The position numbers and the translations under genes were made by a program. The notes under the pieces are model-generated. The model saw only the letters and a program-made list of their open reading frames with translations. It was not told the DNA's origin and searched no databases. Shown one piece after another: positions 6,243-9,562 of a stretch of 64,000 nucleotides of DNA (the stretch's first letter is position 1; each line of letters begins with the position of its first letter). The stretch lies in the NCBI RefSeq assembly GCF_009931435.1, contig NZ_CP043414.1; one strand, given 5' to 3'. Source of the DNA: Escherichia coli (GTDB taxonomy: Bacteria; Pseudomonadota; Gammaproteobacteria; Enterobacterales; Enterobacteriaceae).

Positions 6243-7133
6243 ATGATGTTTAAGCAATACCTGCAAGTAACGAAACCAGGCATCATCTTTGGCAACCTGA
6301 TCTCGGTGATTGGGGGATTCCTGCTGGCCTCAAAGGGCAGCATTGATTATCCCCTGTTTATCTACACGCTGGTTGGGGTGTCACTGGTTGTGGCGTCGGG
6401 TTGTGTGTTTAACAACTACATCGACAGGGATATCGACAGAAAGATGGAAAGGACGAAGAATCGGGTGCTGGTTAAGGGCCTGATCTCTCCTGCTGTCTCG
6501 CTGGTGTACGCCACCTTGCTGGGTATTGCTGGCTTTATGCTGCTGTGGTTTGGCGCGAATCCGCTGGCCTGCTGGCTGGGGGTGATGGGCTTTGTGGTTT
6601 ATGTCGGCGTCTACAGCCTGTACATGAAACGCCACTCGGTCTACGGCACGTTGATTGGTTCGCTCTCTGGCGCTGCGCCGCCGGTGATCGGCTACTGTGC
6701 GGTAACCGGCGAGTTCGATAGCGGCGCAGCGATCCTGCTGGCTATCTTCAGCCTGTGGCAGATGCCTCACTCTTATGCCATCGCAATTTTCCGCTTTAAG
6801 GATTATCAGGCGGCAAACATTCCGGTACTGCCAGTGGTGAAAGGCATTTCGGTAGCGAAAAACCACATTACGCTGTATATCATCGCCTTTGCCGTTGCCA
6901 CGCTGATGCTCTCTCTTGGCGGTTACGCTGGGTATAAATATCTGGTGGTCGCCGCGGCGGTTAGCGTCTGGTGGTTAGGTATGGCGCTGCGTGGTTATAA
7001 AGTTGCTGATGATCGAATCTGGGCACGCAAGCTGTTCGGCTTCTCGATCATCGCCATCACTGCCCTCTCGGTAATGATGTCCGTTGATTTTATGGTGCCG
7101 GACTCGCATACGCTGCTGGCTGCTGTGTGGTAA
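6243..7133 (+). CDS. cyoE: Haem O synthase (protohaem IX farnesyltransferase)
   Basis: Start moved to [19 protein letters not shown], giving 296 aa; UbiA-family membrane protein. Confidence 0.92.
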
Positions 7134-7147
7134 CACAACCTCTCTAT

Positions 7148-7176
7148 AAAAAAGGTGCTACGGCACCTTTTTTATT
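7148..7176 (+). terminator. Rho-independent terminator of the cyo operon
   Basis: aaaaaaggtgc-tacg-gcacctttttt hairpin followed by a T-run, just after the cyoE stop. Confidence 0.75.
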
Positions 7177-7187
7177 GTCTGAGAACA

Positions 7188-7219
7188 GAGATACGGCTAA
7201 TAACCGTATCTCTTGACAG
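7188..7219 (+). promoter_or_regulatory. 10-bp perfect inverted repeat abutting a TTGACA -35-like hexamer; candidate promoter/operator of the toxin-antitoxin operon
   Basis: agagatacgg-N7-ccgtatctct immediately followed by ttgaca, then a 17-nt spacer and taaatt; about 100 nt upstream of the antitoxin ATG. Confidence 0.35.
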
Positions 7220-7317
7220 AGTGAGTATATGCACATAAATTAATCATTCGGTTGATAGCCGTATTATGCATGAGATCGACTCCCTACGATTTCATTCAGT
7301 TAATCAAAGAGGTCATA

Positions 7318-7629
7318 ATGCCTGGAAAAACAGTCGCTCTACCCGATATCGATAAAACGCTGAAAAATGCGCGGGTTGAACTCAAAACCAGTCCCGACGC
7401 CAAAAACAAACTTCGTGAAGCTGCGCAAGCCGTTGGGGTAGATTTAAGCGCTTTTATTTTGAGCGCAGCTATGGAACGCGCCGAAAGTGTGCTTGATAAC
7501 CAACGTCGCCGTGAGCTTTCGAATCAAAGCTGGGAACTGATGAACCAACTCATCGCTGAACCTGCTCAACCGACGCTCGCCCTCAAGGCGTTAATGAAAA
7601 GGAAAAACAGCGATGGTCGACAAGCATGA
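7318..7629 (+). CDS. Type II antitoxin, ribbon-helix-helix DUF1778 family (TacA/AtaR-like)
   Basis: 103 aa from the ATG with RBS aaagagg; N-terminal pattern KNARVELKTSPDAKNKLREAAQAVGVDLSAFILSAAMERAESVL is typical of DUF1778 antitoxins; its stop overlaps the start of the GNAT gene. Confidence 0.75.
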   Translation: MPGKTVALPDIDKTLKNARVELKTSPDAKNKLREAAQAVGVDLSAFILSAAMERAESVLDNQRRRELSNQSWELMNQLIAEPAQPTLALKALMKRKNSDGRQA

Positions 7630-8155
7630 AGAGATTACTCTGCCCATAGTCCTCTCCTGTAATTATCAGTCTGATATTACTTATCCTGGGCAAAAACAGT
7701 TTGATTGCGGTAACCCTGTTATCGATAAATTTGTACGCGCATCGCTAAAGAAAAGTGTGCGTAATAGCGACTGTGCTGCTAAAGCACTTATTGACAGACA
7801 AAGTGGTGAACTGATTGGCATCTGTACTTTTACGGCATATTCGCTGGAAAAACAACGCGTTTCTGGCGTCCTTCAGGGTTCACAACCTTCAGAGATTGGT
7901 GTTGTCAGATTAGTCATGTTAGGGGTAGCGCGGAAATATCAAAAGCGGGGCTTTGGTCAGGACCTACTATGTGATTTTTTTGAACATGTAAAAATAATTC
8001 ACCGGGCATTACCAATTAAAGGGGTTTATCTTGATGCTGACCCTGCCGCCATTAACTTTTATACTCGTCTCGGCTTTGTTCAGCTTTCAGCGAGGCCCAA
8101 TGTTTTCGGTGCTGTACCGATGTTTTTAGCGATTCAGCATATTCTCGCGGCTTAG
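7613..8155 (+). CDS. GNAT-family acetyltransferase toxin (TacT/AtaT/ItaT-like, predicted aminoacyl-tRNA acetyltransferase)
   Basis: 180 aa; FDCG motif near the N-terminus and the acetyl-CoA motif RKYQKRGFGQDLL; 17-nt overlap with the upstream antitoxin. Confidence 0.75.
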   Translation: MVDKHEEITLPIVLSCNYQSDITYPGQKQFDCGNPVIDKFVRASLKKSVRNSDCAAKALIDRQSGELIGICTFTAYSLEKQRVSGVLQGSQPSEIGVVRLVMLGVARKYQKRGFGQDLLCDFFEHVKIIHRALPIKGVYLDADPAAINFYTRLGFVQLSARPNVFGAVPMFLAIQHILAA

Positions 8156-8210
8156 ATTATTATCGCCTCCGGCCATGGCAAGTTTTGCCTCAGCCGGGGA
8201 CTGAGCAGCG

Positions 8211-9146
8211 TTACCACTTTTGTTCAATTGCCCCCGCTTTCATCAGGTCCACATCCTTGCCTTTAATGGTTGCCGTTGCGGCAACCATTGTGGTCCTTAT
8301 TGCTGCACAAGATTTTCGTTCAAATTCCGGTTTATAAAGAATAAGCAACGAATTACTGGTAAATGAATCAAGCCGGTAATCTGTAAAGTTAATATCCAGT
8401 CGGTTTAAGCCGAAAGGTGCAAAGCCGACCGTTTGAATAGTTTCCTTACCTGACGGACTCTTGATGTTGTACGTAACACGAAGATTGGCCACTTCGCCTA
8501 ATTTATTGGTTTTGGCAAAGAGGCTATCCATGCAGGAAAAACCTTTATCTAAAAAATTATCCCGCATTCCAGAACGGGTAATCGTGATCACAGGTAACGT
8601 ATCGTCAACCGTTTTTCTGTCAATCATATCTTTTCGACAGGTGGCCATAAAGTCTTCCGGACCAGTATAAATGTGAACACCCTTATCAAGATATTCTTTC
8701 GCTTTACTACAATCCACCTCGACATACTGACCATTGGCGTACATCATGCCCAACCTGGACCATGCTAAATTCACACCGCGTTGCGTAGCCTGATTAAATA
8801 ACGCATACGCTTTGGCATAATCCACCCGCACCTGTTCACCTTCGTAGTAGATATCCCCCAGCGCTAACGGAGCTTCTTCATCACCTTGTTTAGCGGCTAA
8901 CTCGAACCATTTAATGGCTTCCTGAACGTTGGGTTTGGTATCGTAGCGGGGCTGATAATATTCCCAGCCTAACAGGCTTTGCGCGTCGACATCCCCCGAC
9001 TCAGCCATTTTATACAGTGTCCTTATCACATCGGGGGCAGGCTTTTCACTGTATATGCTGTCATACAATTCATGCGCTTTCTCGCTTGCCAGTGAACCTT
9101 GTGAGGCAATTAATAAAATAGCCAATAAACTCTTTTCATTTAACAT
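8211..9146 (-). CDS. Secreted Sel1-like repeat (TPR-like) protein with a C-terminal domain of unknown function
   Basis: 311 aa; N-terminal signal peptide (LLAILLIASQGSLAS); tandem Sel1-type repeats (AIKWFELAAKQGDEEA..LGDIYYEG...AYALFNQATQRG...LGMMYANG); roughly 170-aa C-terminal region without recognisable motifs. Confidence 0.7.
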   Translation of the reverse strand: MLNEKSLLAILLIASQGSLASEKAHELYDSIYSEKPAPDVIRTLYKMAESGDVDAQSLLGWEYYQPRYDTKPNVQEAIKWFELAAKQGDEEAPLALGDIYYEGEQVRVDYAKAYALFNQATQRGVNLAWSRLGMMYANGQYVEVDCSKAKEYLDKGVHIYTGPEDFMATCRKDMIDRKTVDDTLPVITITRSGMRDNFLDKGFSCMDSLFAKTNKLGEVANLRVTYNIKSPSGKETIQTVGFAPFGLNRLDINFTDYRLDSFTSNSLLILYKPEFERKSCAAIRTTMVAATATIKGKDVDLMKAGAIEQKW

Positions 9147-9562
9147 AAATAACCTTTATGCATCCATCACTATATTTTTCAATAAACCTAACCACCAAAC
9201 ATCCACTTCATGAATAAATACACAGCCATAACAACCTCAGGTAATAAGTAAACATTTAAGCTGAAGCAGAATAACCAGCACCTCCAACACCTCTATTTAT
9301 TGCGATAAAATAACACCATCCTTTAATAAAAAATCACACGCTCATCAACAAATCCGAAAATAATATCATTCGTGGCAGGATAAAATCAGGCGAGCTTTTC
9401 ATTTGTTATATTTAACGCACAAAGTATTAATGGCAAGAATACGAGGGAAGCGCATGCCTGACGTAAAAATCACGCTCTTATGTAATATTTACTCATTAAC
9501 ACTCTGTTTACCCAACATGCGCTCCGCACTACACTATGTGGGCAATTTTTTAAGAGGTGGTA

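Follow-up and report, generated by a model that had tools for sequence, protein, structure and literature searches.

An operator at its own promoter is the ordinary, expected arrangement for a module of the TacA family of toxin–antitoxin systems. In Klebsiella pneumoniae, the KacA4KacT2 heterohexamer was crystallised on the duplex AAATGTACGGTTATTAACCGTACATGA (Qian et al. 2019, PMC6698736, PDB 5ZGN), where two ribbon-helix-helix (RHH) dimers per heterohexamer read both arms, base contacts are made by KacA R8, D10, and R12, and R12 contacts the G flanking the core (GTACGG). De-repression at a high toxin:antitoxin ratio (conditional cooperativity) was shown for KacAT and has also been described for AtaR–AtaT of E. 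coli O157:H7. AtaR–AtaT forms an A4T2 heterohexamer on a palindromic operator (PDB 6GTS, 6AJM; Jurenas et al. 2019, Yashiro et al. 2019, per PMC8138530 and PMC6698736), and its antitoxin alone binds weakly while the complex binds tightly (PMC8138530, PMC6698736). In Salmonella enterica, split-probe EMSA established that the TacA–TacT complex binds two separate promoter sites (VanDrisse et al. 2017, PMC5449658).

For ItaR–ItaT of E. coli, promoter autoregulation has already been published. Wilcox et al. 2018 (PMC6125619) reported that a 172-bp fragment upstream of itaR (-183 to -11) gave ~40-fold reporter expression in the host strain E. coli HB101, and that co-expression of ItaR and ItaT returned the reporter to background whether the toxin was active or inactive, i.e., repression proceeded without any need for ItaT activity, whereas ItaR alone was without effect on the promoter. 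In the same study ItaR was not found to be acetylated, in contrast to TacA, which TacT acetylates, altering its DNA binding. The publication mentions no palindrome, operator, inverted repeat, footprint, or EMSA, and we found no mapped ItaR operator in the searchable literature. The exact sites have apparently not been mapped before, and what is added here is these predicted sites and their conservation across the family.

The itaRT module and its genomic context

The module lies in a 64-kb stretch of E. coli DNA (hereafter "the window"), in which itaR (7318–7629, + strand) encodes a 103-aa TacA/DUF1778 RHH antitoxin (PF08681, E 1e-17; RefSeq start). The next gene, itaT (7613–8155, + strand), overlaps it by 17 nt and encodes a 180-aa GNAT aminoacyl-tRNA acetyltransferase toxin, recognised by its Pfam GNAT domains and by a match to PDB 7BYY (175/180 residues identical, E 1e-115); one of the five differences from 7BYY matches G115D, a mutation engineered for crystallisation (PMC7367177). 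This pair is the characterised E. coli ItaR–ItaT toxin–antitoxin system of Wilcox et al. 2018, who used the allele of strain HS, in which itaRT occupies the same cyoE-adjacent locus, between cyoE and yajR, and which is 95.5% identical to the window over the regulatory region. Overall, itaRT is carried by 1371/5426 complete E. coli genomes, about a quarter, including strains HS and BL21, and among 1372 places matching the region in this genome collection, one was on a plasmid and not the chromosome.

Translation of itaR starts at an ATG at 7318, and a Shine-Dalgarno sequence, AAGAGG, can be read from the sequence at 7307–7312 (+ strand) and is conserved in Pseudocitrobacter. A database entry from E. 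coli IAI39 (125 aa, 100% identical) instead begins itaR at a TTG at 7252 (window 7252–7629), inside the second palindrome described below. Between the two, the RefSeq ATG at 7318 with AAGAGG at 7307–7312 is far more plausible as the itaR start than the TTG.

The module is part of an island of ~2.3 kb, from about 7177 to 9486 between cyoE and yajR, which comparison with K-12 shows to be absent from that strain and which takes the place of about 28 bp between the cyoE terminator and yajR. Its left flank is the conserved chromosomal cyoABCDE operon, of which cyoE (heme o synthase; 6243–7133, + strand, based on the ORF list and on RefSeq annotation mapped from a 99.8%-identical strain) is the last gene. 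The island contains itaR, itaT, and a Sel1-repeat gene, and neither the ORF list nor Pfam revealed any integrase, transposase, or recombinase gene within it. The Sel1-repeat gene (8211–9146, - strand; 311 aa) is intact in the window and annotated as a pseudogene with an internal stop in the 99.8%-identical strain E200086, while the Pseudocitrobacter locus (L003) carries two tandem Sel1-repeat homologues of 59% and 42% identity.

An intrinsic terminator follows cyoE at 7146–7175 (+ strand), with 13-bp arms ATAAAAAAGGTGC/GCACCTTTTTTAT, a GC core (GGTGC/GCACC), a T-run, and a predicted RNA fold of -17.2 kcal/mol (z -7.6). The same hairpin exists at the K-12 empty site, which places the terminator outside the island. 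Our promoter and terminator scan did not call this hairpin, likely because its A-run and T-run pair within the 13-bp stem and leave no T-tail; the missed call is a limitation of the tool and has no biological meaning. The terminator downstream of cyoE is built on another stem in Pseudocitrobacter (CCCGC...GCGGG versus GGTGC...GCACC in the window; L003 2317–2380 versus window 7134–7190), yet the sequence that comes after it, TTTTTTATTGTCTG, is the same in both, and the left junction of the island is therefore located within or at the end of the terminator T-run in both genera.

Two palindromes bracket the predicted itaRT promoter

Upstream of itaR, a predicted operator that we designate O1 spans 7187–7213 as a 27-bp palindrome with a conserved core, ATACGG-CTAATAA-CCGTAT, at 7191–7209. 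O1 is a perfect 10-bp inverted repeat, with arms AGAGATACGG (7187–7196) and CCGTATCTCT (7204–7213) on either side of the spacer CTAATAA (7197–7203). The promoter scan placed a -35 hexamer, TTGACA, at 7213–7218 and a -10 hexamer, TAAATT, at 7236–7241 (both + strand, with a 17-nt spacer); this predicted itaRT promoter matches the sigma-70 consensus at 10/12 positions, is the sole such match in the intergenic region, and predicts a transcript start at about 7247–7249. O1 adjoins the -35 hexamer with a 1-bp overlap, the last T of CCGTATCTCT being the first base of TTGACA. A first-pass annotation of this DNA had described, at 7188–7219, a perfect 10-bp inverted repeat with a seven-base centre, fused to TTGACA and continued by a 17-nt spacer and TAAATT. 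The repeat, the fusion, the spacer, and the -10 hexamer were all borne out, with the qualification that the repeat starts one base earlier, at 7187, and that 7219 falls just past the -35 hexamer (7218). The candidate operator that the annotation placed at the promoter is supported, but it had considered a single one, overlooking a second site at 7246–7264.

This second predicted operator, O2 (7246–7264; ATTCGG-TTGATAG-CCGTAT), was recognised from a repeat search, from the layout of the kacAT promoter, and from the comparison of related loci. The repeat search found it as ATTCGGTTGATAGCCGTAT, 55 bp from ATACGGCTAATAACCGTAT at 7191–7209. O2 begins 5 nt past the -10 hexamer and lies across the predicted transcript start, and O1 and O2 together enclose the promoter, as the corresponding sites do in 13 other loci. 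If the published reporter coordinates are numbered from the itaR ATG, the fragment used by Wilcox et al. corresponds to 7135–7307 and contains both O1 and O2; a count from a transcription start near 7248 would leave the -10 hexamer out, and such a fragment could not give promoter activity.

We then evaluated how unusual these palindromes are. A perfect 10-bp-arm inverted repeat is not by itself rare in this genome: about 12 distinct ones occur in the window, mostly terminators, versus 0.7 expected under a first-order Markov model. The core motif TACGG-N7-CCGTA is another matter: O1 matches it at 10/10 positions and O2 at 9/10, the only other match with ≤1 mismatch in the window is at one unrelated position, and two matches within 100 bp were seen in 0/300 simulated windows. 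Chance can produce neither a second related palindrome 55 bp away nor conservation in 24 related loci.

The two sites differ in their variation among E. coli alleles. Aligning four E. coli alleles with Pseudocitrobacter showed no change in the O1 core, ATACGG/CCGTAT. O2 varies in its left arm: the majority allele, that of HS, has ATACGG, the window has ATTCGG (T at 7248), and FDAARGOS_1268 has ACACGG. That a single O2 half-site has changed twice independently suggests that repression is looser or otherwise modified in minority lineages, and the mismatches may mean that O2 is weakened in these alleles. Such natural variation in O2, including the T at 7248 here, could alter basal expression.

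Resemblance to KacAT and other described modules

The KacAT operator shares with O1 (AGAGATACGGCTAATAACCGTATCTCT) the TACGG/CCGTA core, a 7-bp AT-rich centre, and a 27-bp span. Like ItaRT, KacAT has a TacA-family RHH antitoxin with an aligned R-x-D/E-x-R/K beta-strand. The native kacAT promoter reads TTGAGT, 17 nt, TATATT, aaatg, and TACGGAAAATAACCGTA, so that its single operator takes the position of O2, starting 5 nt after the -10 hexamer and spanning the transcript start. Three close relatives share this one-site arrangement with KacAT, in contrast to ItaRT, where O1 is an extra site adjoining the -35 hexamer. Operator binding has been demonstrated for KacAT, whereas for ItaRT it is predicted from sequence.

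KacA and AtaR are the PDB matches of ItaR, which is 36% identical to KacA. Within ItaR, the beta-strand KNARVELKTS is nearly unchanged in 21 orthologues of 56–96% identity, and R19, E21, and K23, which are invariant in all 21, align with the DNA-contacting KacA residues R8, D10, and R12. With this overall identity and with K23/E21 in place of R12/D10, the details of the contacts may differ from those of KacA. The base flanking the core is A in E. coli ItaRT (ATACGG) and G in KacAT, and ItaR has K23 where KacA has R12; however, both A and G occur at this base across the ItaRT subfamily, and the pairing is therefore not a strict code.

The other described modules resemble ItaRT in different respects. 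AtaR matches ItaR only at E 9e-9, and AtaRT is likened to ItaRT by the behaviour of its repressor, not by operator sequence: weak binding by the antitoxin and tight binding by the complex agree with an ItaR that does not repress alone and does so together with ItaT. TacAT is likened by the number of sites, again not by sequence, and its dual-site promoter is a family precedent for the ItaRT layout; since the Salmonella complex binds two sites, a two-site promoter is not new to the wider family.

The palindrome core is conserved across related loci

To assess conservation, we scanned species-representative genomes for ItaR relatives and obtained 24 loci, from Pseudocitrobacter, Edaphovirga, Phytobacter, Rahnella, Buttiauxella, Chimaeribacter, Trabulsiella, Serratia, Kluyvera, Xenorhabdus, Superficieibacter, and three Nitrospirae MAGs. 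The core was present in 24/24 loci within 320 bp upstream of the antitoxin gene, and matches at ≥9/10 positions numbered 36 in these 7.68 kb of upstream sequence versus 1 in the remaining 116.6 kb. The cyoE/Sel1 neighbourhood was shared only by the Pseudocitrobacter locus, the other 23/24 being in unrelated contexts without cyoE, yajR, or Sel1 flanks.

Besides the window, 13 loci carried two sites, 54–60 bp apart with a mode of 57. Their common layout is an O1 core, 4–5 nt, TTGAC, about 17 nt of non-conserved sequence, TAnnnT (mostly TAGATT), and 4–10 nt (5–7 nt in 11/13 loci) before the O2 core. A real two-operator promoter should show just this combination of constrained hexamers and operators with spacers free to drift, and the pattern reads as a classical phylogenetic footprint. 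Nine Xenorhabdus loci have an O1-type site only, followed 5 nt on by TTGCA or TTGCT, and the Nitrospirae loci have a single site within the -35/-10 spacer. O1 thus appears, from these alignments, to be an additional upstream operator characterising the ItaRT subfamily. In eight of the Xenorhabdus loci (L013 and L016–L022) the O1-type site lies about 130 bp upstream of the antitoxin gene, and a GTACAAT after a -10-like TATCTT in Xenorhabdus may be a decayed O2 half-site.

Conservation does not extend over the full length of the arms. The window has C at position 7210, in the right outer arm of O1, where HS has G and fS58a has A, so that the perfect 10-bp symmetry is specific to the minority allele of the window; carriers ≥99% identical to it over 7177–7330 number 10/1368. 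Between loci, outer arms vary in both sequence and length, and symmetry at the four positions beyond the core was kept in 25, 19, 21, and 16 of 38 cases, counts that come from non-independent loci and are above the 25% expected by chance, with symmetry decaying thereafter. With 7210 varying among E. coli alleles and the outer arms differing between loci, the 10-bp arm was rejected as the functional unit. The sequence comparison indicates that the conserved unit is the 6-bp arms ATACGG/CCGTAT, and that the outer 4 bp are variable already within E. coli. The proposal that the 10-bp repeat is an operator accordingly holds for its 6-bp-arm core and not for the outer 4 bp, and because these are not conserved, the arm length, part of what had drawn attention to the repeat, looks fortuitous.

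Predicted mode of repression

Four features of a KacAT/AtaRT-type operator are found together at this locus: the core, a position at the module's own promoter as defined by predicted hexamers, an RHH antitoxin with the reading residues, and co-occurrence of site and module independent of genomic context. By analogy with KacAT, we consider it highly likely that O1 and O2 are the operator palindromes of the itaRT promoter, each bound by one ItaR4–ItaT2 complex and flanking the core promoter. O1 would very probably be one of two sites by which the complex shuts off its own promoter. The suggestion of the first-pass annotation that the repeat is an autoregulatory operator overlapping the module's own promoter is therefore supported by the match to the KacAT core, by the presence of the core in 24/24 loci, and by the repression of the fragment by ItaR–ItaT (PMC6125619). 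Where it credited autoregulation to the antitoxin, the published data uphold repression by the ItaR–ItaT complex but not by ItaR alone, and the repressor is likely the complex.

Following the KacA4KacT2–DNA structure, each palindrome would be occupied by one ItaR4–ItaT2 heterohexamer, whose two RHH dimers would insert their beta-strands (ItaR R19, E21, and K23) into two major-groove half-sites. With a KacAT-like footprint of 27 bp, O1 would be covered over about -61 to -35 and O2 over about -6 to +20, such that both complexes would adjoin the ends of the core promoter and RNA polymerase would be excluded. ItaR alone would be expected to bind weakly, and the requirement for the toxin fits the AtaRT/KacAT picture of a weakly binding antitoxin and a tightly binding hexamer. 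Excess free ItaT would, if ItaRT follows AtaRT and KacAT, release the complex and de-repress the promoter through conditional cooperativity. DNA looping between O1 and O2 is not favoured: the modal distance of 57 bp amounts to about 5.4 helical turns, which would place the sites on roughly opposite faces, and the spacing is fully explained by each site adjoining a promoter hexamer.

Alternative explanations

One alternative is that only O2 is a working operator, with O1 as a non-functional or accessory duplicate. KacAT and its three close relatives manage with a single site at the O2 position, and the published KacAT structure and model need just one palindrome. Yet O1 is the better conserved of the two sites, its core being perfect in four of four E. 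coli alleles while O2 varies; it is held 4–5 nt from the -35 hexamer in 13 other loci and is the sole site in nine Xenorhabdus loci. Together with the two promoter sites bound by Salmonella TacAT, and above all because O1 is the better conserved site, this makes the O2-only explanation improbable. Even less probable, to the point of being nearly negligible, is that the palindrome is bound by some other, host-encoded regulator: the site travels with the toxin–antitoxin module across Enterobacterales and into Nitrospirae MAGs, it matches the operator of a homologous antitoxin (KacA), and the ItaR–ItaT complex alone was sufficient for repression of the reporter in E. coli HB101 (PMC6125619).

The first-pass annotation had itself offered two further possibilities, a terminator-like hairpin and a leftover of the insertion boundary, both of which fail. 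In RNA form, whether in a transcript reading through from cyoE or in an antisense one, O1 would indeed fold stably (+ strand -14.5 kcal/mol, z -4.1; - strand -17.1 kcal/mol, z -5.8), but neither strand provides the U-tract of a terminator, the stem being followed by TGACAGAG on the + strand and GTTCTCAG on the - strand; the scan made no call here, and the true cyoE terminator is a separate element 12 bp upstream of O1, at 7146–7175. Moreover, the equally conserved O2 folds no better than shuffled sequences (z -0.3), indicating that conservation acts on a DNA motif, not on a hairpin, and O1 lies upstream of the -35 hexamer and thus outside the itaRT transcript. A search of Rfam at a permissive threshold returned only sub-threshold chance matches, none near a gathering score. 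A role of O1 as a terminator or other RNA hairpin is hence very hard to credit. The same can be said of O1 as a relic of island insertion, i.e., a terminal inverted repeat or attachment site at the cyoE–yajR junction. It does start only about 11 bp in from the island's left edge, but no copy of its arms is found near the right boundary (9400–9500), nor elsewhere beyond chance, the island has no integrase or transposase gene, and in the 23/24 loci that have no cyoE, yajR, or Sel1 flanks the distance between site and promoter is still constant.

Implications

Taking O1 and O2 as paired operators of ItaR–ItaT, the locus provides a testable map of how a persistence-type toxin of E. coli would stay off, consisting of two 27-bp sites and a predicted promoter and transcript start. 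The core TACGG-N7-CCGTA, common to ItaR and KacA despite their limited identity and reaching into Nitrospirae MAGs, is a useful signature by which TacA-family operators can be annotated. None of these findings alters the general view of type II toxin–antitoxin autoregulation.

A further reading, which we regard as rather unlikely, is that the two-operator bracket of the 14 loci, window included, is an innovation of the ItaRT subfamily that acts as one unit, with hexamers bridged, for example, by ItaT–ItaT contacts, or else that paralogous modules cross-regulate each other. If the bracket did act as one unit, repression and release would depend on the toxin:antitoxin ratio in ways beyond the reach of a single-site KacAT promoter. 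As for cross-regulation, paralogous modules in one genome, e.g., the two Rahnella rivi loci, may regulate each other because core and reading residues are invariant; in that case insulation would come from the parts that vary, namely the outer arms and the N-terminal tail of ItaR. The shared core also raises the question of cross-talk between co-resident modules more generally. The two Rahnella rivi modules (L006 and L008), both ItaRT-like, have the same operator core and different outer arms (CACCATACGG versus TCGGATACGG), and form a natural setting in which to look for cross-talk or insulation between operators.

Finally, the itaR leader contains a direct repeat, TCATTCGGTTGAT/TCATTCAGTTAAT, at 7244–7256 and 7292–7304 in the window. 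One copy, at 7244–7256, forms the left half of O2; the other is found in the 5' UTR just upstream of the Shine-Dalgarno sequence. GATTTCATTCAG is conserved in Pseudocitrobacter, and it could be a vestigial half-site or a UTR element.
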